This document shows, in pieces, positions 5,874-37,065 of a stretch of DNA of 64,000 nt. The notes below the pieces were generated by a model. The model was not told the DNA's origin. It saw nothing but the letters and a program-made list of their open reading frames with translations, and ran no database searches. The translations under genes were made by a program, and so were the position numbers. The DNA is from a virus (taxonomy: Duplodnaviria; Caudoviricetes): IMG/VR virus record IMGVR_UViG_3300017766_003039, positions 2,985 through 66,984 of that record; one strand, given 5' to 3'. Every line of letters starts with the position of its first letter. Position 1 is the stretch's first letter.

Positions 5874-6251
5874 CTATTTTACGCTGTAGGTGGTGAGCAC
5901 GGTCTGGAGCAGCTTGACCGCCTCCGTCGCCGACCGGGCCGCGGCGATCGCCACACTGTCCTGGACGCCCGGCTGGCGGACGATGGCCTCTGCCCCGTCC
6001 AGGGCGGCGCCGGCCACGGCATCGGCCTTTCGCAGTTGCAGCACGACGCTCTCGTCCGAGCAGATCGGGGGCGACGCCGGCCGGCCGCAGCGGGGGATGG
6101 CGTTGTACTTTGTGGCCACCACCAGCGCCCCGACGTAGGCCGTCTTGGCAGCAAAGACCGACTGGGCCGGGCTGGGCGAGCCGGACTGGCCCGGAGCCCC
6201 ACAGGCAGCCACGAAACCGGCCAAAGCGATCGAGATAAGCAAGCGGGTCAT
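5874..6251 (-). CDS. Lipoprotein in lysis cassette (spanin-like role possible)
   Basis: Signal peptide with lipobox FVAA-C (MTRLLISIALAGFVAAC). Confidence 0.7.
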   Translation of the reverse strand: MTRLLISIALAGFVAACGAPGQSGSPSPAQSVFAAKTAYVGALVVATKYNAIPRCGRPASPPICSDESVVLQLRKADAVAGAALDGAEAIVRQPGVQDSVAIAAARSATEAVKLLQTVLTTYSVK

Positions 6252-8067: not shown

Positions 8068-8895
8068 CTAGTAAGCACATGCCCAGTAGGTGACGGCATC
8101 AGACAAAAGGAACGCCGATGAGAGAGAAATGACCCGGAGTGCCGTAGTCGTAGGGGCCGCCAGCGCTGCCACCATGATGATAGCCGTGGAGCCAATAATA
8201 CTGTTGCCCGCATACATGCCGTAAGTCCAAGTGGCCGCCGCAGGAAGGGCGGTGCCAGATGTAACTGTATAATCTCCGGCGGCGTTCATGGTGATCGTAG
8301 CCGTGTAGCCGACGTTCCGGGTGACCGTGGTGCCACCGCCCGTCCAGGTGACGCAGAGGTAGGCGATGCGATCGGCCGCGGCGGCAAAGGAGGTGGCGTT
8401 CCCGCTGCTGGTGACTGGGCCCGTCAAATTGGCATTCGTCGTGACGGTGCCGGCCGTCAGTCCGGCAGCAGTACCCGTCAGGTTGGTGGCCACACCGGAT
8501 GCCGGCGTGCCTAGTACCGGGGCAATCAGCGTAGGCCCGTTGTTCAGAACGACCGTCGACCCGGTGCCGGTTGTCGTGGCCGCCGCCAGCGCGGTGCCGT
8601 TGCCTGCCAGCACTGGCGAATTGATCGACGTCGAAAGCGTAATAGCCGGCGTCGTAGTGGCCGTCGCCACTGAGCCCGCAAGCCCGTTCGCGCTGACGAC
8701 GGAAACGCTGGTGACCGTGCCGGAGCCGCCGCAGGCCTGATTGCCGACCTTGCCGGCCGCGACGTACAAGCACTGATTATTGGTCCCGCCGATAACCGGA
8801 GTGCGGCCAATGGCTATTTCATTTCCACCCGGGATCTGAGCTAGGGCGGGAAATGCCAGCAACGCGGCGAATAGGCCAATCAGGATGCGCTTCAT
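8068..8895 (-). CDS. Thr/Gly-rich fibre-like protein with signal peptide
   Basis: MKRILIGLFAALLAFPALA-Q; GTVTSVSVVSANG and TLIAPVLGTPASGVATNLTG motifs typical of phage fibre shafts. Confidence 0.7.
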   Translation of the reverse strand: MKRILIGLFAALLAFPALAQIPGGNEIAIGRTPVIGGTNNQCLYVAAGKVGNQACGGSGTVTSVSVVSANGLAGSVATATTTPAITLSTSINSPVLAGNGTALAAATTTGTGSTVVLNNGPTLIAPVLGTPASGVATNLTGTAAGLTAGTVTTNANLTGPVTSSGNATSFAAAADRIAYLCVTWTGGGTTVTRNVGYTATITMNAAGDYTVTSGTALPAAATWTYGMYAGNSIIGSTAIIMVAALAAPTTTALRVISLSSAFLLSDAVTYWACAY

Positions 8896-8950
8896 AGGGT
8901 GTCCTCTAGGTCACAAGATACCACGGGTTGTGTGGGAAACTAATCAACAT

Positions 8951-9508
8951 CTAGGGGGTAGGGCCGGCCGGCGATCCGGCGATGGGAGCCCGGCGCTCGA
9001 GGGAAAAGGGCGTGAATTCACCATGGGCCTCGGCCGCACCCACCAAGTAAGCACAATACGCTGCTGCCACACAGTCAAAGTACCCGAGATGGCGACGCAC
9101 CCTATTGCGGGTTACCGAAACCTTCCATTTGCCCAACGGCTCAAACCAACTAACGCCCCGGAAGCCAGACGTATTGGTGCTGCGTAATTTGCTGTTGGTC
9201 GCATTCTGCGAGTCTGTCGCCTTACGAAGGTTGCACCAGCGATTGTCTGCTCGGCACCTGTTCACATGGTCTATTTCTTCTTCGGGCCACTCGCCGGTCA
9301 TGTATAGCCACGCCAGCCGACCGCCAACATGCTTCTGCCGATTGATAGAAATGTGGACATAGCCCTGATTGTTAATGGTCCCGGCTATTTTCCCGACCAT
9401 CCTCGGACCGCTTGTTGCTTCCGCGATCCAGATGAATTGCCCCGTCAGCGGCGAATATGACAGTCGCCGCCTTATCTCTATTTCGTCCGGCCGTATCGTT
9501 TGTGCCAT
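8951..9508 (-). CDS. HNH homing endonuclease with C-terminal AP2 domain
   Basis: EIDHVNRCRADNRWCNLR...QN...NTSGFRGVSW...HLGYF...A...Y; lower GC than its neighbours. Confidence 0.92.
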   Translation of the reverse strand: MAQTIRPDEIEIRRRLSYSPLTGQFIWIAEATSGPRMVGKIAGTINNQGYVHISINRQKHVGGRLAWLYMTGEWPEEEIDHVNRCRADNRWCNLRKATDSQNATNSKLRSTNTSGFRGVSWFEPLGKWKVSVTRNRVRRHLGYFDCVAAAYCAYLVGAAEAHGEFTPFSLERRAPIAGSPAGPTP

Positions 9509-23306: not shown

Positions 23307-24200
23307 CTAGTAGGCTGCCGAGTTACCGAACATTACGTTGTCGAAGCCGCCCCACCACATGCCAATCCCTGGGCCGCCCCATCCCATCGCGCTGTTCCCA
23401 ATGCCACCCGACAGGCGGGCCCGCATCCAGTCGACGTTCAGGTCCGCATTGGCCCAGCTTTCATTACCGTCCGAAATCCGCGCCTCGAGTATTTTGCTTT
23501 CAGCGATCTTCATGTTGCGATCGCGCATGACCAGGCCGAACTTCTTGTCGCGAGCCAGCGGCATTGCAATCTCGGCCGCGAGATAGGCTACCAGTGCCGC
23601 GCGGAACTGCGCATCCCACTGAGTCGGATAGAAAGCGTTGAAGGTGTAGATGCAGCGCGCGTTCTGCACGTTGGTCATAATCACCAGCCGACCCGTCGGC
23701 CCCACGCCGGGCATGTCCACCGGAGTCTGCGCCACGCCGTCAGGAATGTAGTTTTGATCGGTCGTCACCAGAAAACGCGCCGGGATCGGACGCTGGCCCA
23801 GCAGTGCATTTGGCAGGCTCGTCGTCAGGGGCGACCCGGAATTGTCCGGCACAATGTTGTTGCTCGGGACGCTGACATTGATCAGCGGATTCCACGGGAC
23901 ATAGCGGACCTTCTGGCAGTCCGTCGGATAGGCGTACTCGTAGATAAACTGGCTGCCCGGGACCTGAGTGCCAACACCGGTCGTATTGCCCGTGCCGTCA
24001 GCCAGAAGCTGGAGCGGCGCTTCCTTGCGGGCGCAATTCCAGTGGGCCGCCCGGAGAAGCTGCCGGAGGCACTGGCCATAGGCGCGCAGGATCTTCTGGG
24101 CCTTGGTCGTGCCTTCCTGGATGTCGCCCAAGGTGAAGTCGACACCGGCCGCATCGAGCGCCTGATTGGCCACGCCGGTCGGGGAATTGTAATCGTCCAT
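23307..24200 (-). CDS. Head-tail adaptor / tail tubular protein A, paralog 1
   Basis: ANQAL...LLRAAHWNCARK...YEYAYPTDCQKVR...WDAQFRAALVAYLA. Confidence 0.8.
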   Translation of the reverse strand: MDDYNSPTGVANQALDAAGVDFTLGDIQEGTTKAQKILRAYGQCLRQLLRAAHWNCARKEAPLQLLADGTGNTTGVGTQVPGSQFIYEYAYPTDCQKVRYVPWNPLINVSVPSNNIVPDNSGSPLTTSLPNALLGQRPIPARFLVTTDQNYIPDGVAQTPVDMPGVGPTGRLVIMTNVQNARCIYTFNAFYPTQWDAQFRAALVAYLAAEIAMPLARDKKFGLVMRDRNMKIAESKILEARISDGNESWANADLNVDWMRARLSGGIGNSAMGWGGPGIGMWWGGFDNVMFGNSAAY

Positions 24201-24817
24201 CAGCCCTGCTCCGCCATTGCCGAGCTCGAGGACCGCGCCACGTCGGTCATGTCGACCTGATCGACATTGGTGTCCTTCAGCCCGCGCTTCAATCGCACGC
24301 CAAGCTCTGCCGCAAAGGCCTCCACATAGTCAGCCGGCCATTGCGCGGGATCCGTGACCTGGCCGGCGTAGGTCAGCACCGCATCGGCCACGTTCGTGCA
24401 GATCACACGCCGCGGCGGGGTGTAGCCCTGATCGTTCAGGACCGCGAACAGGTAGGGCTGCGGGTCCGGATTGAACATGAACAACGGCTGCGGCTTCACC
24501 GCCCGCACCTTCAGACAGTCGGTCGGGTAGGTGTAGGAGAACAACCACGGCATCGGCGGATAGGTCGTGGGATTCCACGACGTCGGCGGGAAATACCCGT
24601 TCGGGGGCGCCTGCTTCAGTAGGGTCAGCGATACGTTGCGCTCAATGAAATCCCAGTCTCCGTCGCGCATCGTGTCATCGCGAGTCTGAGAATAGATCGT
24701 GAGCGCTTGGCTGGCTGCCTTGGATCCGTCGTACAGGGAGCCTACCCTGAGCGTATAGCCAATGCGTTGCAGGCTGAGATTGACGACGTCGGTGGGATTC
24801 GAAACGGACGCGGGCAT
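24200..24817 (-). CDS. Head-tail adaptor / tail tubular protein A, paralog 2
   Basis: VNLSLQRIG...MRDGDWDF...WLFSYTYPTDCLKVR...WPADYVEAFAAELG. Confidence 0.8.
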   Translation of the reverse strand: MPASVSNPTDVVNLSLQRIGYTLRVGSLYDGSKAASQALTIYSQTRDDTMRDGDWDFIERNVSLTLLKQAPPNGYFPPTSWNPTTYPPMPWLFSYTYPTDCLKVRAVKPQPLFMFNPDPQPYLFAVLNDQGYTPPRRVICTNVADAVLTYAGQVTDPAQWPADYVEAFAAELGVRLKRGLKDTNVDQVDMTDVARSSSSAMAEQG

Positions 24818-24820
24818 TTA

Positions 24821-25390
24821 TCAGCCATCCCTGGTCATGGCAGCACCGGAGAATACACCGGCACTGCTCAGCAGCACCTGGGAAGTCTCCGGACGGCCGC
24901 CAAGGGCGATCGCGAATTCGCTGGCCAGCAGCCGCACAACGGCCTGGTGGAACAGGGCATCCCAGATCGAAGGATCGGGATTGTTGTTGTAAACCGCCCG
25001 CGCGTTCACAAGGTCGGCCCAGATCACCTTGGTCTGCACCGAGGCCACAAGAGTATTACCCACAGTCCAGTTGGTCGGCAGCGGGTTATTGGGATCGGCC
25101 AGCGTCCCCGGCATGACTTGCCAGATTTCCAATGCCGGCGCGGGATAAATGTATTCGTAGGCCCAAGGGAAGGGCGCCGTGTTGCCCGTCACCGTCAAGG
25201 CACCCGTGGCGCGCCCGAAGTCGAATTCGAACTGGCGCCCCACCGCGGCCACGCACGGCCCGTAGAGATACGATGCCGCAATGCCCGCCGCTGAGCCGTC
25301 AAAGCTCGGGTAGGTTCCAGTGACGGGCTTCTGGTTGTCGCCCATCAACTGGATGGCTTCGTTCACTACCGAGGTTGGAGTGATCGCCAT
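24821..25390 (-). CDS. Head-tail adaptor / tail tubular protein A, paralog 3
   Basis: VNEAIQLMG...RQFEFDF...WAYEYIYP...WDALFHQAVVRLLA. Confidence 0.75.
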   Translation of the reverse strand: MAITPTSVVNEAIQLMGDNQKPVTGTYPSFDGSAAGIAASYLYGPCVAAVGRQFEFDFGRATGALTVTGNTAPFPWAYEYIYPAPALEIWQVMPGTLADPNNPLPTNWTVGNTLVASVQTKVIWADLVNARAVYNNNPDPSIWDALFHQAVVRLLASEFAIALGGRPETSQVLLSSAGVFSGAAMTRDG

Positions 25391-26799: not shown

Positions 26800-27144
26800 T
26801 TAGGTCCGATCATACAGCGGATTGCCCATCTTGCGTTCCGCTTCTTTGTTCTCGGCGTCTTCCGACTCGGTGCAGCACATATCCTCGATCTGCATCTCGA
26901 CCCGGCAGCTAACGCCGTTCTCACCATCGTCCCGGCTGACGTTCACAATCCGAGCCAGCGCATGGAAGTGAATGATGCCGCCCGAGCAAAGGTCCGACGT
27001 GTCAATCCCCAGCTTGATGAGCTCGCGCTGGTTCAGGCTGATGCGCGTGCCTGGCGGATAGTCCGGGCGCCCCGGCATCGGGATCGGCAGGATCTGATCC
27101 AGCTTTTCCTCATCCGACATCTCGAGCGAGACCATGGGCTTCAT
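26800..27144 (-). CDS. Putative capsid staple-like protein
   Basis: P.YPPGTRISL...L.KLG...VEMQIEDM pattern; ends GNPLYDRT. Confidence 0.55.
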   Translation of the reverse strand: MKPMVSLEMSDEEKLDQILPIPMPGRPDYPPGTRISLNQRELIKLGIDTSDLCSGGIIHFHALARIVNVSRDDGENGVSCRVEMQIEDMCCTESEDAENKEAERKMGNPLYDRT

Positions 27145-27147
27145 GGC

Positions 27148-27591
27148 CTAGCCCTCCGCGGGCTTGTCGGGCGGAGACTTCTCGGCAGAAGCGTCCTTCT
27201 TGGCCGTGCCGCCGGCGCCGAACGATAAATCGAAGTGATCGGCGATCTCCTTGTTGTGCCGCGAGCCCATCGTGCGATGCGCCTCGCGCATGCTGCCGTG
27301 GTGATCCATGCGCTCCTTCTCGTGGCGCTTATGGATCGCCTTCAGGCCATCCAGGAACATATCCTTGGGGGATGCGGCCTCTTCGGCCTCACCGTCGGCA
27401 GCCGCCGCGGCGCTATCGACCTCGGCCGCAGGGGCCTCTTCGCCGGCCTCGCCCTCGGCGGCAGCAGCCTCGGCTTCCGGCTTCTTCTCCGGATCGGGCT
27501 TCTCTTCGTCCTTGGGCTTGTTGTCGTACAGCGGGCTCTTGGTCATGGGCTTTATCCTCGAGGTAACGTCTGCCAATGTTGGGCTAGGCAT
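27148..27591 (-). CDS. Acidic/His-rich head-cluster protein starting with a copy of the MCP N-terminal peptide
   Basis: MPSPTLADVTSRIKPMTKSPLYDN...; second possible start at 27546. Confidence 0.75.
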   Translation of the reverse strand: MPSPTLADVTSRIKPMTKSPLYDNKPKDEEKPDPEKKPEAEAAAAEGEAGEEAPAAEVDSAAAAADGEAEEAASPKDMFLDGLKAIHKRHEKERMDHHGSMREAHRTMGSRHNKEIADHFDLSFGAGGTAKKDASAEKSPPDKPAEG

Positions 27592-27802
27592 TGATCTTGT
27601 CGTGACGGAACTTGCCCATCACCTCAGACCGGAAGAACGATCCTGCCGATTCAGCTTTCAGGAAACGATCGTACACATCCTTGGGCGCTTCAGGATAGCG
27701 ATAGAGGCCGCCAGACTTAAACCAGACCCACAGCCCGCTCTTGTCGTGAGCGACGCCGGAGATATTGCTGCTCTCCACCTTGACCTGCTTCGGGGGCTTC
27801 AT
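27584..27802 (-). CDS. KTSC domain protein
   Basis: VESSNISGVAHD...LWVWFKSGGLYRY...P.DVYDRFLKAESAGSFFRSEV. Confidence 0.9.
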   Translation of the reverse strand: MKPPKQVKVESSNISGVAHDKSGLWVWFKSGGLYRYPEAPKDVYDRFLKAESAGSFFRSEVMGKFRHDKINA

Positions 27803-27978
27803 TCTTTTTCCATCTCTTCGCGGTGCTTCTTTTGGAGCTCCGGCCAATCCTTCTCCGGAGTGTCGCGATATTCCTGCTCGTGCCGCTTGCGCATTTCCCT
27901 GCTGGCCCGGTTCTCCACCTGGGTGTCAGTGGCGCTCCCGGACCTGATGTGGTCGTACAGGGGCGGCCGGCCCTTCAC
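27799..27978 (-). CDS. Small charged protein (59 aa), missed by the ORF track
   Basis: GTG start overlapping upstream stop; MKGRPPLYDHIRSG...REMRKRHEQE...EMEKE*; stop overlaps the KTSC start. Confidence 0.7.
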   Translation of the reverse strand: MKGRPPLYDHIRSGSATDTQVENRASREMRKRHEQEYRDTPEKDWPELQKKHREEMEKE

Positions 27979-28148
27979 TTGCTCCTCGCGTGATCGTACA
28001 GCGGGTTCGCCTTGCGCTCAGGCAACTTTCCAGGCTTGTCCGCCGCCACGAATTCCTTAGCAACGGCTTGGGAGACGCCACCGGCGCCTCCCTTTTTCTT
28101 CGACGCCGCCCACATCAGGCGACGCTGCTTCTCGCTGACCGGTGGCAC
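27975..28148 (-). CDS. Small basic head-cluster protein (57 aa), missed by the ORF track
   Basis: MPPVSEKQRRLMWAA...GVSQAVAKEFVAAD...NPLYDHARSK*, a recurrent podophage mini-protein pattern. Confidence 0.75.
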   Translation of the reverse strand: MPPVSEKQRRLMWAASKKKGGAGGVSQAVAKEFVAADKPGKLPERKANPLYDHARSK

Positions 28149-28646
28149 TTAGCCGCCGACGCGGGCCACGCAGATATAGTCCCACTTGTTCCCGGACTGC
28201 GAAGCCTGCACCAGGGTGATCGCGGTGGCGCTCACCGAGTAGGCCGGCGTCGAAGTGCCCGGCGCGACCTGCGACGTCGCCACGCAGTAAGGCACCGCGG
28301 CGTAGGCCGTGGAGAAGGTGATCACGCAACCGGTGGCGCTGGTGCCCAGAGTGACCGTGCCGGCGCTGTCGGTGCCGGAGATCGCCGGAGAACCGGTGCC
28401 GCAGGACGTGAGCGCCGGGGTGCCAGAGTGGCCCGAGGCGCCGCCCAGCAGCCATGCCCGCATCTGGGTCAGGGTCGCGTAGACGTTGCCGGCGGTCGGC
28501 GCCGCGTTCGGGATCACCTGGACGACGTCGTTGACGCCCATCGAGACGGGGTTGGGCAGCGTCACCTGAGCGATGGCAAAGCCGCCGCCGAGCAGAAGGC
28601 CGATGGCAGCGAAGGCGCCGAGAATGCGAGTCTTGAGGGTCTTCAT
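28149..28646 (-). CDS. Fibre-tip/decoration-like protein with signal peptide
   Basis: MKTLKTRILGAFAAIGLLLGGGFAIA-Q; PALTSCGTG...GCVITF..AY...PYCV...DYIC. Confidence 0.7.
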   Translation of the reverse strand: MKTLKTRILGAFAAIGLLLGGGFAIAQVTLPNPVSMGVNDVVQVIPNAAPTAGNVYATLTQMRAWLLGGASGHSGTPALTSCGTGSPAISGTDSAGTVTLGTSATGCVITFSTAYAAVPYCVATSQVAPGTSTPAYSVSATAITLVQASQSGNKWDYICVARVGG

Positions 28647-28668
28647 GGTCTTCTCCTTGAACGAAGGG

Positions 28669-29526
28669 CTAGGCGCCGGCGGCCGAGATGCCCATCGACT
28701 GGACGGTCACGGCGGTGAGGCTGGTGAGGGTGACGATGAACCGGCGCGTCACGTTCTGGGCAATCGTCATGGTGCCCGTCAGCGTGATGCCGGTGTTGGT
28801 GGTGATGGTCGCGGTGTTGGCGCTGCCCGAGCCGTTGCGGATCTCCAGGATGTAGGAGAAGCCGATCTGGGCGTTCGGGATGGCAGCCACGACATCGGCA
28901 GCGGCCGGGAACTGGAGATTGCCCGGGGTCGTGCCCGTGTTGATGTGCTCGCAGACGTTGGCGCCGGCGACCGAGGCCGCGGCGATCGTGGCGCTCTCCA
29001 GAGCCGCGGTGACGAACTTCGCGTTCGGCAGGCTCATCAGCGGCACGACGTTGATGCCGGTCAGCGTGAAGGCGCCGGCGGTGTCCTGCTTCAGGAAGAA
29101 GTAGCCGACCGACAGGCCGGGGATGACCGTGAGGCCAGCCAGCGTGACGCCGGAAGCGCCGGCCGCCAAGGTCTGGGCAAAGGCCACCGTGTTCTTGATG
29201 GTCAGCAGGCGAGTGGCGCCCACCGGGGTATCGGCGCCCAGGGCCGCAAGGATCTGCGCGCCCGTGGCCGTCGTGTCGGTATAGACGTCCGTGGGGCCGG
29301 AGCGCGTGATCAGGCCGCCGGCGATCGCCGCCGCGGTCAGGGTGCCAGCACCCACCGTCGTGATGGCGGTGTTCTGCACATCGTTCGAAAGCTCGAAAAA
29401 CTGCGACAGGTTGCCGAGGTTCGTCTTGGCCGACCGAGGACCGACCGTGATGATGTCGACCTCCATGTTCGCCGCAAGTTCATCGGCATCCAGCATGATG
29501 GCGCCAGGAGCAATCGGGTCGACCAT
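28669..29526 (-). CDS. Capsid decoration-like protein with two tandem similar domains
   Basis: Two repeats of the pattern T..AA..AG...T.T...P/T.A.I.AA...G....L.I.N......T..G.G.TL.G. Confidence 0.6.
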   Translation of the reverse strand: MVDPIAPGAIMLDADELAANMEVDIITVGPRSAKTNLGNLSQFFELSNDVQNTAITTVGAGTLTAAAIAGGLITRSGPTDVYTDTTATGAQILAALGADTPVGATRLLTIKNTVAFAQTLAAGASGVTLAGLTVIPGLSVGYFFLKQDTAGAFTLTGINVVPLMSLPNAKFVTAALESATIAAASVAGANVCEHINTGTTPGNLQFPAAADVVAAIPNAQIGFSYILEIRNGSGSANTATITTNTGITLTGTMTIAQNVTRRFIVTLTSLTAVTVQSMGISAAGA

Positions 29527-29541
29527 TCTTCGGTCCTTTCG

Positions 29542-30420
29542 TTACAGAAGGGGAACCGACAGCGTCCGCGCTGCCTGTCCGGTTTCGCTGATACGATACT
29601 TCAGGGCTACATCCGACGCCGGCGTCACCGCCGTGAGGTTCAGCCGATAGAGCACCATGTTCTCAGGCTCGCCAAAGCTGAGCGAAATCGGCGTCGCCGG
29701 ATTCCACTGAGCCAGCGCGCCGGAGCCGCCGATGTTGCAGACGATCCATGTCGCGCCGCCGTCAAAGCTGCGCTCGAGTTGGACCGAGCCGGTCAGGCCG
29801 ATCGCGGCACCGGTGATGGTCGCCGCTGCGTCCACACCGGTCGGAACCGCGCCGGCCGCGGCCAGGGCAAATTCGTAGGGAGTCGGCTGGTCGTTGGGGG
29901 GAGAGGCCGTCGTCACCGCACTCAGGCTGACAGTGCCCTTGATGCCGTTGGGGACGTTGGGAGAAGGCGCCACCGCGGCGACGTCGATCGCCGTCACGGT
30001 CTGGCCCCCGGTCACGCCCAAGCCGGAAACAACCGCGCCCAGCAGGTCGCTGGTATCGGCGAGGTCCGTGATCTTGGCGATGCCGTTGATGATCTTGCCG
30101 GGGAGCGTGACCGTCGGCAGCACCATCTCGATGTCGGTTCCCGCGACGGAGCCGACCGTGGTGCCCCGCGGAACCAGCGAGCTATTGATCGCCGAGCCCG
30201 CCGCCACCGTCGTCGCCAGGACGGCCGACAGATCGGCAGCCGTCGTGGTCAATTCGTCCGTGAACTCTCCCCAGATGGCGAGGTTCATCGGGCCGAGGAA
30301 AGCAAAAGGCTTGGTCGGGCCGAGCGCCGCCAACGTCCCCTGAATCACGCCATTGGCCATGTCCCCGACAAGCGGTGACTTGCCAGAAGCGCCTACGCCG
30401 AGGGGAGCCGGGACGCCCAT
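29542..30420 (-). CDS. Structural (decoration-like) protein
   Basis: C-terminal GSVQLERSFDGGATW...EPE..VLYRLN...YRISE pattern; Thr/Ala-rich central insertion. Confidence 0.6.
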   Translation of the reverse strand: MGVPAPLGVGASGKSPLVGDMANGVIQGTLAALGPTKPFAFLGPMNLAIWGEFTDELTTTAADLSAVLATTVAAGSAINSSLVPRGTTVGSVAGTDIEMVLPTVTLPGKIINGIAKITDLADTSDLLGAVVSGLGVTGGQTVTAIDVAAVAPSPNVPNGIKGTVSLSAVTTASPPNDQPTPYEFALAAAGAVPTGVDAAATITGAAIGLTGSVQLERSFDGGATWIVCNIGGSGALAQWNPATPISLSFGEPENMVLYRLNLTAVTPASDVALKYRISETGQAARTLSVPLL

Positions 30421-30423
30421 ACG

Positions 30424-31200
30424 CTACACTCCAGCCGTCTGGATAACCGGCGGCGCCGACTTGCCGAGCACATGCGTGTGCGTCTGCTCCGGAGCCGAGG
30501 ACTGACCCGGCACGCGCGGATCGTTGAAAATCTTCTTGCTGGGCTCCGCGACTTCCGGCGGGGCGACGTTCGGGCGGCCCTTGACGATGCCCTCCTTGGA
30601 GAACACCCACGGGCTATCCGAGCGCAGCCAAGGCGCGTCCGGCAGGCCTTCGGCAGCGGCGCTGCCAATCGACTGCTGGAACAGGCCAAACACCTGAGCG
30701 GCGTTCTCGTCGTTCGGCACCATGCCTTCGTTCGGCGGCCGGTCCCAGTAGATGACCGTGTCGTTGAACTTCTTGGTGGCATCGTCCCGCCACTGCGGGT
30801 CCACCAGAGTGTCGTCCAGCCACATCTGCGTGCGGATCGTGTAGGTCGGGACGACGCCCCGGGCCCGCAGGTCCACCAGCAATGCCACCATCTGATCGCG
30901 AGCCACCTTGCGGCGCTCGACGACATCCGGCGCCACCATGCGCATCTTGTTCTTGGGATCGCTCGCCTGAACGATCGCCGAGGCCAGATGACGCGCGAAG
31001 TTTTGGTCCGTGTTGCCGCCGCCCGGATCGGCCGTGCCGGCTTCCGCCCGCGCGACGCCCACCGACTGCATCACCTGAGCGGTGATGCTGGCCACGAGGC
31101 TCGGCATCATTTCCGAAATACGGTCTTCGGCCTTGCGGTCGATTTCCGCGTTCTTCTCTGCCAGTTCCCGCGCGATCTGAGCGTTGGACTTCCGGGCCAT
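30424..31200 (-). CDS. Hypothetical head-cluster protein
   Basis: Long ORF downstream of the cement gene with typical codon usage. Confidence 0.7.
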   Translation of the reverse strand: MARKSNAQIARELAEKNAEIDRKAEDRISEMMPSLVASITAQVMQSVGVARAEAGTADPGGGNTDQNFARHLASAIVQASDPKNKMRMVAPDVVERRKVARDQMVALLVDLRARGVVPTYTIRTQMWLDDTLVDPQWRDDATKKFNDTVIYWDRPPNEGMVPNDENAAQVFGLFQQSIGSAAAEGLPDAPWLRSDSPWVFSKEGIVKGRPNVAPPEVAEPSKKIFNDPRVPGQSSAPEQTHTHVLGKSAPPVIQTAGV

Positions 31201-31201
31201 G

Positions 31202-31759
31202 CTAGGCGACCCCGCTCACGGAGTAGTTCCGCGCCGCCTGAGCCGCGAAGTAGTCGTCGCGAGCCTGGGTGACCAGAGCATAGGCGATCGTGCCGGCCGA
31301 GTAGTTGGTGCCGGCCAAGATGTTGAAGTTCAGCCGCAGGAAGCGCGGACGCAGGTTGTCCGGGAACGGCGGCAACCAAGGGATACGCGCGATCTGGCGA
31401 CCGGCGATGCCCTGAGCGGCCGTGATCAGCGGGCCGGCGCCGAGCACCTGGTAGGTGCCGGGCGAGCCGCTGCCGTTATCCGGAGCGGCCTGCAATTCGA
31501 CCTGAAGGATGGGCGAACCGGTATCGGCCACCAGAGCGGTGCCGATCGCCACGACGAGCTCGGGGCGCATATTGCCCTGGCCCATGGCGTCGGCCTGACC
31601 CGGGAGGGTGGCGATGCCGGTGATGTTCTGCACGGTCGTGCCAGCGCCATTGCCCAAGAGGTCGATGACCCCGGGAGCAAGGACATCGACGCCCGCCGCG
31701 GCCACGAGGGACAGCGGCGAACCGTAGGGCACGAAGGCCAGCTTGGAGTCGATCAACAT
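31202..31759 (-). CDS. Bbp16-like capsid cement protein
   Basis: MLIDSKLAF...VIDL...ELVV...LQVELQAAPDN...RFLRLNF; directly after MCP. Confidence 0.8.
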   Translation of the reverse strand: MLIDSKLAFVPYGSPLSLVAAAGVDVLAPGVIDLLGNGAGTTVQNITGIATLPGQADAMGQGNMRPELVVAIGTALVADTGSPILQVELQAAPDNGSGSPGTYQVLGAGPLITAAQGIAGRQIARIPWLPPFPDNLRPRFLRLNFNILAGTNYSAGTIAYALVTQARDDYFAAQAARNYSVSGVA

Positions 31760-31789: not shown

Positions 31790-32839
31790 TTAGGAGACGG
31801 CGCTTTCGGTGATCAGGAGGCGATCGCTGACCTTCACCGGCACGCCGCGGAACACATCCTGCGGCCGGCCAGCGGCGTCGTTGATCGTGAGCAGCACGTT
31901 GCGATCGCGCATGCCCTGGGCGTCCATCCAGAAGCGGATGGTGCGGTTGGCGTAGATGACCGGACGCACGCTCGGGGTCGGATCCGTCGGCGAGTCGGTC
32001 TTCATGATTCCGGAGACGCCCTTGCCGAGCGCCGGCGGCAGCATGACCGCCTGCGACAGCAGCAGGAACAGGTCGGGAGCACTAGCGCCCGCGAGACCGG
32101 CGCTGGTGGTGTCGAGGTTGGCGATGCGCACCGCGTTGCGCCAATCCTCGGGCACGATGTTGCCCTGCTGGCGGAAGTAGGTGGTGTAGGCCTCGTAGCG
32201 GTTACCCACGTTGTCGTAGGCCGGGACCGTGTCGGCCTTGTCCTCGGAGACCAGGCCCGCCTTGGAGTTGCGCGGGTAGGTGCCGTACACCGTGCGCTCG
32301 CCCCAAGCGACCAGCCAGAGCGAAGCGTTCGAAGCGCCGACGCCGCCGCCGTTGATCACGTTCACCGCGTTTTGTGCGGTGGCCTGATTGAGCGTGTTGT
32401 AGAACAGGCTCAGGCCCAGGAAGGCGGCCGGGTTGGTGTTGGTGTTGCCGTACCAGAGGGTCTGCTCCCAGGTCTGGCCCATGCCTTCGATGAAGGCGAC
32501 GTCCTCGGTCGTGCGGAACGCCTCGATACCGGACGGGTTGGCTTCGGCCAGCATACGGTCGATCTGGCTGTAGCCCTCGAGCGAGCCCATGCCCAGGCGA
32601 GCCTTGCCGGTGGTCGACTTGCTGTAGCCGACGCCCTGATTCAACTGGCGGAAGTTGCCGGCCGGGAGCGACGTGCGGTAGCTGAACTCATGCCCGAAAA
32701 TCTCGGTGCCTTCCTTCAGCGGCATGTCCTCGACCAGCGCGGTGCTCTGCGAGAGCATTTCCGCGATATACATCTGCTTGCCCGCACCGTCGATACGGGA
32801 GGTAACGTCGGCCAGCGTCGGCCATGCACCTGTCGCCAT
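31790..32839 (-). CDS. Major capsid protein (HK97 fold, BPP-1 Bbp17-like)
   Basis: PTLAD...IAEMLSQ...RTSLP...FRQLNQG...EDVAFIEGMGQ...LWYGN...DWRNAVRIAN...FRGVPVKVSD.L..TE. Confidence 0.93.
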   Translation of the reverse strand: MATGAWPTLADVTSRIDGAGKQMYIAEMLSQSTALVEDMPLKEGTEIFGHEFSYRTSLPAGNFRQLNQGVGYSKSTTGKARLGMGSLEGYSQIDRMLAEANPSGIEAFRTTEDVAFIEGMGQTWEQTLWYGNTNTNPAAFLGLSLFYNTLNQATAQNAVNVINGGGVGASNASLWLVAWGERTVYGTYPRNSKAGLVSEDKADTVPAYDNVGNRYEAYTTYFRQQGNIVPEDWRNAVRIANLDTTSAGLAGASAPDLFLLLSQAVMLPPALGKGVSGIMKTDSPTDPTPSVRPVIYANRTIRFWMDAQGMRDRNVLLTINDAAGRPQDVFRGVPVKVSDRLLITESAVS

Positions 32840-32864: not shown

Positions 32865-33797
32865 CTACCCGCGGCCGTTGGTTTGAGAACGCGGGTGGTC
32901 GTGAAGCGGATTGCCGCTACGCTTGCCCCCTTCGGGAACGAGTTTGACGTCCGTATGAACCGGGACGGACGGCTCCGACAGCTTCCGTTGCGCGCGGTAG
33001 ACCATGCGCAGGAAAGCCGGATTGTCCCCCGCGCCGGTGACGCGGAGAAACATATTGAAATGATCCATGTCGGCCTGCCACTCGGGCGTGCCTCGCGGGT
33101 GATCCGACACGAACTCGTCGCGAAACTGGGCGATCTTGGTCATGGCCGCGTCGTGGCCGGACCCGCCGAGAATTTCGTCGGCCTTCACTTCCGTGCGCCA
33201 GCCGCGGCGCGTGTCGGCCCATACCTGGTGCTGATTGCGCTCGACGTTCTCGATCACTTCCGTGAGCGCGGTGTTGTGCAGATCGACGAGCCCTTGCAGA
33301 TCGCCCGTGCGCGCCATCTGGGCCGCGGCATGGAACTGATCGCGCCGAGCGTCGTCCATCTGGATCGTCTCGGGCAACTCGTACTTGAACTCGATCGGCG
33401 GCAACTCGGGGGCCGGAGCCTCCTCGACCTTCTCGCCGTCAGCCGGCTTCTCTTCGGCCTTGACCTCTTCCACCGGCTTGTCGGCTTCGGGCTTCGCCTC
33501 GGCGGGCTTGTCTTCGGCAGCGGGCTTCTCGCCATCGGCAGGCTTCTCGGCTTCCGCGGCCGGCTTCTCCGCCCCGACTTCCTCGAGCAGCGTGGCGCCA
33601 GCGTCCGGCAATTCCTTGGCAGCGGGGGCTTCGGCAACGGGCGCCTCGGCAGCCGGCGCTTCGGCGGCCGCAACGGGCGCGTCCGCAACAGGAGCCTCTG
33701 CCGCCGGGGCCGGAGCGATAGTCTCGCCGGCGGCCGGCGCCGCAGTATCCGCGGTCACTTCGGCCGACAGAGGAAGCTCGGGCTGTTCGTCAGCCAT
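32865..33797 (-). CDS. Capsid scaffolding protein
   Basis: Acidic Ala/Glu/Pro-rich N-terminus, YELPE, W..EVKAD..LGG, G.GDNPAFLR motifs; directly upstream of MCP. Confidence 0.8.
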   Translation of the reverse strand: MADEQPELPLSAEVTADTAAPAAGETIAPAPAAEAPVADAPVAAAEAPAAEAPVAEAPAAKELPDAGATLLEEVGAEKPAAEAEKPADGEKPAAEDKPAEAKPEADKPVEEVKAEEKPADGEKVEEAPAPELPPIEFKYELPETIQMDDARRDQFHAAAQMARTGDLQGLVDLHNTALTEVIENVERNQHQVWADTRRGWRTEVKADEILGGSGHDAAMTKIAQFRDEFVSDHPRGTPEWQADMDHFNMFLRVTGAGDNPAFLRMVYRAQRKLSEPSVPVHTDVKLVPEGGKRSGNPLHDHPRSQTNGRG

Positions 33798-35232: not shown

Positions 35233-37065
35233 CTAGCTCGGCACCGTGTCGCCGCTCAGCAGCGAATTCAGCATCGACCCGCCGCCAACCGGCGTCTGGC
35301 TCAGCACCTTCGCGGCATCGACCGCCGGCTTGGCCAGGCTCGAGGCCTGCTGCTGCTGCATCGCAAGATTCTCGGCATCCGCCCGGACCTTGTCTGCGTT
35401 CTGCACTTCCGTTTCCGAATACATCGAGTCGGCCGGGAAGTTGTTGAGATCGAGATAGTGGCGCGTGGCCTTGTCCCAATTCACGACGCGGCCAGGATCG
35501 GGGCGACCGGCGTTCTTGGCCGCCAGCGAAAGCTGCCCGACGGTCTGGAAGCCGTCCTTCATCGCCACCGACTCGGCACTCTTCTGCGCCATCCGCATCA
35601 ACGACATATAGTTGATCTTCAGCGGGATCTTCGCCAGCGACGGCGGCATGGGCTTCAGCATCCCGCGGCGCCCCATGATGGCGATCACGCGCTGGAGCAC
35701 CGGGCCGGCCACGTCGTTTTCGAACAGGTCGATCACCGGGCCCAGAACCTGTAGCCGCTCGAGATCACGCTTCGTGAGCTCCAATTCGTTGCGCGGCTGG
35801 ACACCCTGCATCTGGGTGATGGCCATGAACTGCGGGACGTAGAACACATCCTTCAGCCGGGCCTCGACTTCTTTAATATCGGCAGACAAATACTGAAGCC
35901 ACTGCGGCACAATCTCAAAGGCGGGCTCGAAAGCCTTCTTGCCGTTCGACGTGTTCACGAACGTCACCATGCCGGGCATCACCGACGCGGGCTCGTTCTT
36001 GAGCGCGGGATCCGCCACCATCGGCGGGCGCACGCCCTTCTCGATGAACTCGGCCTTGCGATAGGACTCCTGCTGAAGCTGCTTCTGGTCGCCCAGGCCA
36101 TCCATGCCGGGGCCGCGGCCGTAGGGATCGTTGCTCACCACCGACCACCGACCGGCCATGAACGGCTTCTCCATAAAGCCGCGAACGCTCAGGGGCTTCT
36201 CGGACTTGCGGCCCCGCAGCCAGTAGACCTCGCGGTAGGTATAGCGGCCGGATACGACGTCGATCCGTTTGCCGTTCTTTCCCTTGGGGCCGATCGCGAA
36301 GTTGGGCTCGATCGCATGGGCGACGATGAATTCCTGGTCAAGCTGGCCACCGCCCTGCTCCCACAGGCCCTTCACCTGGGCCGGGCAATTCTCCAGCCCG
36401 AACATCTCGACGATCTGGATCACCGTCAGCGTGAACTCGCGATAGAGCGTGTCGACCGAGAACCGCGCGCCGGCACCCAAGAAATACTCGCCCACGCAGG
36501 GCAAGTAGAACCGGACCACGTCCTCCTTGTCCTCGTAGCAGATCAGCGGCGACGTCCCGAAGATCGTCACGTCCTGGAAGAACTGGGCCATTACGCCGTA
36601 GAAATTCGACTGGTGCAGCACCGCCTGGACGCGCGTACCGGTGTCCTGAAGCCACTCCTTCGCCGCCTGGTCGAGCTTCACGTTGCTCAGCGCCGGTTCG
36701 AACTTGAACCACGGCCGCGCCGGATTGGTGAGACCGCTCCACATGCCCGACGCGCACGTCAGGGCCGCCATGCAGCCGACCGAGTCTATGATCGCGTCGT
36801 TGAGGTAATTGCCGCGATTGTAGTTGTTGGCGATGATCCAGGCCTTAGCACGCCGGGGCAGGAAGAACGTCCCCAATTGCTGCCACGTCGCCCACCAGGT
36901 CCAGCGCCACGTCCGCAGGCCGTTCATCCGGCGCTCGAGATGGCTGAAGGTCTGGTCCCACCACTTGGGCTGCTGTTCAAAGCCGCTCGGCAGCGTCAGC
37001 GGCTGGGCCGACAGAAAGTCTGGCCCCATCTCGGTATAGGCGGCCGTGCCGGCATCAAGCGGCAT
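35233..37065 (-). CDS. Portal (head-tail connector) protein, Bbp21-like
   Basis: W..L..F.LPRR...IIDS.G...A.G.WSGLTNPARPWF...SNFY...FGT...RW.....YGRGPG...RP...RLQVLGPV. Confidence 0.93.
   Translation of the reverse strand: MPLDAGTAAYTEMGPDFLSAQPLTLPSGFEQQPKWWDQTFSHLERRMNGLRTWRWTWWATWQQLGTFFLPRRAKAWIIANNYNRGNYLNDAIIDSVGCMAALTCASGMWSGLTNPARPWFKFEPALSNVKLDQAAKEWLQDTGTRVQAVLHQSNFYGVMAQFFQDVTIFGTSPLICYEDKEDVVRFYLPCVGEYFLGAGARFSVDTLYREFTLTVIQIVEMFGLENCPAQVKGLWEQGGGQLDQEFIVAHAIEPNFAIGPKGKNGKRIDVVSGRYTYREVYWLRGRKSEKPLSVRGFMEKPFMAGRWSVVSNDPYGRGPGMDGLGDQKQLQQESYRKAEFIEKGVRPPMVADPALKNEPASVMPGMVTFVNTSNGKKAFEPAFEIVPQWLQYLSADIKEVEARLKDVFYVPQFMAITQMQGVQPRNELELTKRDLERLQVLGPVIDLFENDVAGPVLQRVIAIMGRRGMLKPMPPSLAKIPLKINYMSLMRMAQKSAESVAMKDGFQTVGQLSLAAKNAGRPDPGRVVNWDKATRHYLDLNNFPADSMYSETEVQNADKVRADAENLAMQQQQASSLAKPAVDAAKVLSQTPVGGGSMLNSLLSGDTVPS

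Follow-up and report, generated by a model that had tools for sequence, protein, structure and literature searches.

In the 3.5-Å structure of the capsid of Bordetella phage BPP-1, the N-terminal peptide of the major capsid protein (hereafter, MCP) is oriented radially and is hydrogen-bonded to strand C of the cement protein, Bbp16, where it augments the CHEF sheet (PMC3863775). In PhiXacm4-11 the N-arm touches the base of the cement-protein jellyroll; pairs of cement proteins are missing at the portal vertex, and a cement protein without an MCP partner is not reported for this phage. The N-termini of the MCPs are intact in the solved relatives. In 80alpha the C-terminus of the scaffold binds mainly the helix of the capsid-protein N-arm, and the SaPI1 protein CpmB copies that tail (PMC5644958). 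The capsid targeting sequence of T4 is present on several genes per genome; it is not a copy of the MCP, it targets the scaffolding core, and it is removed by the prohead protease (PMC3012670).

The stretch of DNA analysed here (64,000 nucleotides; hereafter, the window) makes up most of a 66,984-bp virus record rated complete by CheckV. The source is an uncultured 67-kb short-tailed phage with a podophage head module of the epsilon15/BPP-1 type on the minus strand, and all window features described below are on that strand. The module comprises the portal gene (35233-37065; PF12236), a scaffold-like protein (32865-33797; PHROG 458), the MCP (31790-32839) and, adjoining it, a 185-aa jellyroll cement protein resembling Bbp16 (31202-31759). 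These are followed by four mid-sized genes without a Pfam family (28149-31200), a tightly coupled chain of a 57-aa and a 59-aa gene (27799-28148), a KTSC-domain gene (27584-27802; PF13619, E 2e-13) and the 147-aa ORF with which this work is concerned (27148-27591; hereafter, the arm-copy gene). Directly downstream of the latter is a PF21628 'gp10-like' gene that carries a C-terminal tag (26800-27144). Three adaptor-like genes (23307-25390) are tandem paralogs, all matching a single tail/adaptor family, PHROG 394. The related locus L001 has an opposite-strand gene for a 244-aa Endonuclease_7 protein (12221-12955 of L001), situated between its 458-aa gene and its adaptor paralogs; the window has no such gene.

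The MCP belongs to the GP7 family of epsilon15/BPP-1 type (PF20911, E 2.3e-88): it scores 296.5 bits against the PF20911 profile, for which the cut-off is 27, over residues 17-348, and its profile matches include 3j4u_A (E 1.1e-59), 3j40_A and 8cjz_Y. No MCP more than 41% identical to it was found in any sequenced phage. Profile searches found no peptidase family in the head module of the window, in which the sole 'protease' label is that of PHROG 458, on the scaffold-like protein.

The cement protein returned nothing in a plain sequence search and was assigned by a combination of hhalign, AF2 and Foldseek. Comparison with Bbp16 using hhalign gave 93% (E 3e-7), and the two best PDB matches to the AF2 model (pLDDT 74) in Foldseek were Carin1 8cjz_A and BPP-1 3j4u_H, with TM scores of 0.75 and 0.67 on the target; profile similarity and best-matching jellyroll fold thus agree on a Bbp16-type cement protein. 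Between the window and L001 (5959-6513) this protein is 77% identical, while the MCPs are 99% identical, a divergence that would fit either fast evolution of an exposed surface protein or gene exchange. The PF21628 'gp10-like' protein was also considered as the surface cement and was rejected in favour of the 185-aa gene; it resembles bbp20 of BPP-1 and gp10 of epsilon15. The assignment of a protein of the epsilon15 gp10/bbp20 type to surface density has been questioned (PMC9207676), and the Pfam name of PF21628, 'Gp10-like, major coat protein-like', is misleading for the window gene at 26800-27144.

According to the first-pass annotation, the arm-copy protein begins with an exact copy of the N-arm of the MCP that is encoded by largely different codons. 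Both points are borne out: residues 4-13 of the ORF (27553-27582) are identical to residues 7-16 of the MCP (32792-32821), seven of the ten codons differ, and each of the differences is synonymous, leaving 22 of 30 nucleotides identical. By chance, 4e-5 copies of any MCP 10-mer would be expected across all six translated frames of the window, and residue-shuffled translations have at most 8 residues in common with the MCP. When tandem-repeat matches within a locus are set aside, no other exact peptide that occurs at two places in the six translated frames is as long as the arm copy; 9-mers come next, in non-coding frames and for the most part Arg-, Ala-, Gly- or Pro-rich. With ten identical residues, differences that are only synonymous and an expectation of about 4e-5, the arm copy is far beyond chance.

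The copy lies within a leader of 15 codons that runs from the first start codon, ATG1, to just before a second in-frame start, ATG2 (27547-27591), and that would be present only in the long isoform. The proposal that ATG2 has its own ribosome-binding site and is followed by a SPLYDN tag is confirmed. ATG2 lies at 27546-27544, with GAGGA (27555-27559) 8 nt upstream and the tag (27520-27537) after it. The two genes are also arranged as proposed for coupling of the long start to the KTSC gene, the end of which runs over ATG1 (27591-27589) to a stop at 27586-27584. The GAGGA element is formed by the Ser-Arg codons of the leader (TCG AGG A). The conserved Arg is encoded by the rare codon AGG in 11 of 15 distinct leaders, and by CGT or CGC at the same position of the MCP arm in all 11 loci for which the codon was printed. 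As the Arg codon is AGG here and CGT or CGC in the arm, the same nucleotides of the leader serve both as codons and as the ribosome-binding site of ATG2.

The two starts differ in strength. In the window, the energy of the anti-SD duplex is -5.9 kcal/mol for ATG2 versus -0.7 for ATG1, and the ribosome-binding site of ATG2 has -4.5 to -8.1 kcal/mol in 15 of 17 loci. In the relatives described below, ATG2 is found 11-17 codons into the gene, and the distance from ATG1 to the stop of the upstream gene is between -8 and +25 nt in all loci, with a ribosome-binding site that is mostly weak or absent. Despite indels the first start codon is kept in frame in every locus that carries the leader, although in L021 it is GTG and not ATG. 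There are thus two conserved in-frame starts, each with a plausible route of access. On record, this sequence is annotated with the 132-aa short form, ATG2 being the start that gene callers choose, and GC3 is 0.60 in the leader versus 0.83 in the rest of the gene, which was counted against use of ATG1. The arrangement suggests that the gene probably gives two products, a major short form and a coupled, probably minor, long form.

The short isoform (27148-27546; 132 aa), which is the form reported by gene callers, belongs to an unnamed family, hereafter type A, with 312 cluster representatives at E<=1e-3. It has the N-proximal PL[YH]D tag, charged linker and conserved His-rich helix of this family. 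The leader is absent from the called form of all 149 of the type A representatives listed. AF2 predicts a single long His-rich alpha-helix for residues 75-125 (27217-27369; pLDDT about 90); outside the helix the protein is predicted to be disordered, with pLDDT below 50 for residues 38-70, and a short helix is predicted with modest confidence in the leader. No Pfam or PHROG family was found for the 147-aa protein or for the three other leader-bearing proteins described below, tblastn against phage genomes gave zero matches for the 147-aa protein, and a fold search with its model returned no meaningful match. A resemblance of the His-rich helix to the neighbouring 59-aa ORF (27799-27978), noted from inspection, is not supported by profile comparison: 13 columns are aligned with 30% probability, the helices are not among them, and only the tag is common to the two proteins. 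The 59-aa ORF itself has no counterpart in any related locus, including L001, and gives the impression of having been inserted recently between the 57-aa gene and the KTSC gene, to which it is chained by overlapping stops and starts.

The SPLYDN sequence is one copy of a PL[YH]D motif that is also present at the C-terminus of the scaffold-like protein (32886-32912). Tags of this type occur in eight minus-strand coding frames of the window (at 26820, 27534, 27963, 28004, 32909, 35219, 37903 and 16775) and once elsewhere in the six frames, and wherever their position was checked they are near a terminus. In most phages of the clade for which the end of the scaffold can be read, the scaffold-like protein terminates in this tag. 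BPP-1 (bbp18/bbp20) and phiV10 (p09/p13) likewise have a C-terminal motif common to scaffold and gp10-like protein, of different sequence; as these phages pair the two proteins in the same way, a scaffold-type tail tag common to the whole family looks likely.

MCP loci were gathered from viral, genome and metagenome collections, and each locus was searched for a repeat of the arm of its own MCP. About 20 distinct loci, whose MCPs are 57-99% identical to that of the window, carry a leader that has a common core and a length of 10-16 residues. In L001, where the MCP is 99% and the accessory protein 83% identical, the leader remains in frame: two codons are deleted, others are changed synonymously, and the overlap with the KTSC gene is ATGA. 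The first scan of the genome collection gave no leader locus and the second added one (L078); the metagenome scan gave zero new leader-bearing loci. Among loci with an MCP at least 57% identical that reach far enough downstream, the leader was not found in L013 and apparently not in L014, and it is shortened in L017, L018 and L021, which argues that it is not indispensable. The arm-like match seen in L013 was discarded, as it lies inside an apparent Cys-rich gene of the opposite strand; this small gene (8760-8990) occupies the usual place of the leader, and the type D gene of L013 starts at the equivalent of ATG2. The leader was absent from all of about 45 viral loci with an MCP less than 40% identical. 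The leader gene is absent from BPP-1 and phiV10, and a second copy of the MCP arm was found nowhere in the BPP-1 genome. A 7/10 match to the arm in a virion protein of phiV10 was rejected, being at chance level given the number of comparisons.

The leader is found on four unrelated bodies and always belongs to the first small gene after the 57-aa or the KTSC gene. Body A, the family of the arm-copy gene, is present in the window, L001/2 and L005/6; body B in L003, L004, L011 and L024; body C in L007 and L009; and body D, a short Lys-rich protein, in L010, L015-L019, L021, L022, L025, L028, L030, L067/75 and L078. Body type follows the MCP tree, and in most of these phages type A genes are located one slot further on, without the leader. 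The idea that the leader is a feature of the accessory-protein family therefore has to be abandoned: the family is usually without it, and in the same slot it is found on three unrelated proteins. With four bodies in one slot and leaderless type A genes off it, the leader is better described as a slot-bound module, and the pattern is one of gene bodies exchanged at the ATG2 boundary with the leader left in place. In L024 both the leader (6152-6211), which is that of a different sub-clade, and the type B body are the same as in L003, L004 and L011, yet the MCP arm differs at five of ten positions, which suggests exchange of a small-gene module between phages.

The variation among the leaders supports selection on the copy at the level of the protein. 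Among 15 distinct leaders, the entropy per column is lowest at the second codon position (0.61), intermediate at the first (1.03) and highest at the third (1.43); pairwise codon differences are synonymous in 355 of 735 cases and non-synonymous in 380; and leader indels are in frame. Comparison of each leader with the arm of the same phage gives 16-23 identical nucleotides of 30 and, in all loci, 2-7 synonymous codon differences, and recent gene conversion is therefore no explanation for the matches.

The first-pass annotation had also raised the question of whether homologues co-vary with the N-terminus of their own MCP, and for this the comparison gives support in part. The relatives do carry the leader, and several lineages mirror their own MCP arm; the mirroring is patchy, however, and the distance-based test is null. 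Across 18 loci, own leader-arm pairs have 123 identities versus 105.3 +/- 3.6 for shuffled pairs, for a P of about 5e-6 when shared descent is ignored. Arm and leader share derived states on four separate branches of the MCP tree, namely the clade of the window, L001 and L005 (Val at arm position 6), L022/L025 (three positions), L028 (two) and L078 (one). No correlation between arm and leader distances was seen in a Mantel test (r 0.03, P 0.41) or in its partial form, and the arm is not mirrored by the leader in L005, L010, L024 and L030.

No other N-terminal feature of the GP7 family is as conserved as the copied motif, which aligns with residues 8-18 of the BPP-1 MCP and with the N-terminus of epsilon15 gp7. 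The copied segment corresponds, as a sequence copy, to the arm that contacts the cement protein in BPP-1. Since leader and PL[YH]D tag are on one protein, the long isoform would hold an arm-like and a scaffold-like element together. A topology problem arises at this point, in that the tag is common to the internal scaffold while the cement protein is external. Moreover, a free docking site on the cement of the virion is not evident, given that no unpartnered cement protein is reported in PhiXacm4-11 and that cement is missing from its portal vertex. Vacant cement proteins at the portal vertex were entertained as receivers of the leader and dropped, as in PhiXacm4-11 it is the cement proteins themselves that are missing there.

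The reading that we favour, at somewhat better than an even chance, is that of a dual-start gene in which a minor long form bears a capsid-arm docking peptide. Initiation at ATG2, with its own ribosome-binding site, would give the bulk product, a tagged, disordered protein with one long helix. ATG1, which has little or no ribosome-binding site and is situated on the upstream stop, would be reached by translational coupling, and its product would begin with 15 additional residues in which the N-terminal arm of the MCP of the same phage is reproduced. We infer binding: the arm copy would act as a portable docking peptide, through which a minority of molecules may, while the head is assembled, take a position that is normally filled by a capsid-protein arm, fixing the small tagged protein to the head. 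One candidate receiver is the jellyroll cement protein, whose sheet is extended by the arm in BPP-1; the other, by analogy with 80alpha, is the scaffold-type C-terminal tag. Because the stronger second start follows the leader, a rare long form would be able to dock and a common short form would not. Of the original suggestion of an MCP-arm mimic, what stands is the selection on the copy, the conservation of both starts and the role of the arm as a docking element in BPP-1; what does not is the attachment of the leader to one protein family. A wider version is doubtful and is offered as such: arm copying onto small proteins might be a general, so far undescribed route by which head components of tailed phages are addressed or regulated, with leader and tag as the two halves of a contact and the long isoform as a two-ended adaptor that chains tagged mini-proteins to each other and to the shell.

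The alternative that fares best, although we consider it unlikely, is that the leader acts as a decoy or chaperone, competing with MCP arms for free cement protein or scaffold-type tags without becoming part of the particle. It would cap binding surfaces in the cytoplasm, or time the binding of cement or the release of scaffold. The sequence evidence for such a role is the same as that for docking, and binding to a free protein is easier to picture when each cement protein in the solved relatives is already partnered by an arm; CpmB, furthermore, is a real case of competition for a capsid contact. The coupled start without a ribosome-binding site, however, suggests low abundance, a poor fit to the roughly 420 cement proteins of each head, and the scaffold-like tag on the bodies suggests that they are themselves recruited to the head.

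Less probable still is a relic, in which only the short form matters and the leader descends from an old partial duplication of the 5' end of the MCP gene, kept for the ribosome-binding site of ATG2 and for the coupling junction. Such an origin would sit well with the preference of gene callers for ATG2, with the Ser-Arg codons that double as its ribosome-binding site, with the lower GC3 of the leader and with its shortening or absence in some loci. But 5-6 nt suffice for a ribosome-binding site, whereas 9-10 residues are conserved here, and the residues upstream of it vary mostly at third positions across MCPs that are only 57% identical. The first start (GTG in L021), moreover, remains in frame in every locus despite indels, and several lineages mirror their own arm.

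A similarity held at the level of nucleic acid, as an RNA element or regulator site on both the MCP and accessory mRNAs or as a recombination boundary, is very improbable: both copies do lie at the 5' ends of coding regions, and the leader marks the point at which bodies are exchanged, but the 16-23 of 30 identical nucleotides are few and the differences are concentrated at synonymous sites, and folding of seven leader regions gave no structure in common and no gain in stability over shuffled sequences (z -1.4 to +1.6). Programmed frameshifting, by which the leader would be read as a C-terminal extension of the upstream protein, was suggested by several loci in which the leader frame stays open for some codons before ATG1 and is rejected because the offsets between stop and ATG1 (-2, +1, +5, +20) fall in both alternative frames, such that no single shift works, while the upstream gene is of two unrelated kinds and a start codon is always there.

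If the leader of the favoured dual-start gene does dock, it would provide a handle of 10-15 residues for loading or displaying cargo on capsids of the epsilon15/BPP-1 type, and would mark which small proteins are head components in uncultured phages. With two start codons, one peptide and three candidate partners, the system is also a simple one to test. T4, with its targeting sequence, already provides an example of a short address peptide, and CpmB one of a protein that mimics a capsid contact from the scaffold side; we found no description of a phage whose own accessory proteins carry a copy of the capsid-protein side, one that a second start renders optional. The S107 and S105 products of lambda arise from two in-frame starts and differ by a 2-residue N-terminal extension that alters membrane topology; here the extension is longer, at 10-16 residues (15 in the window), and what it imitates is an element of the capsid.

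One of the closest known systems is BPP-1 (PDB 3J4U; PMC3863775), to which the window is linked by a homologous MCP (E 1e-59), an aligned arm and a Bbp16-like cement protein, and from which it differs in that the BPP-1 genome has no second copy of the arm. The leader resembles the T4 capsid targeting sequence (PMC3012670) in being a short conserved N-terminal peptide found on unrelated small head proteins. It differs from a label shared by several proteins of one phage: each window or locus has one copy, so that a single gene per genome is marked, the peptide is a copy of the MCP arm, no protease was recognised in the head module, and the presence of the peptide is made optional by the second start. 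Another parallel is CpmB of SaPI1 in its dealings with 80alpha (PMC5644958), a small protein that reproduces one side of the contact between scaffold and N-arm and in this way takes part or competes in the assembly of the capsid, just as the scaffold-side tag of the window is common to several small proteins. CpmB, however, copies the scaffold side and is encoded by a satellite, whereas here it is the phage itself that copies the side of the capsid protein.
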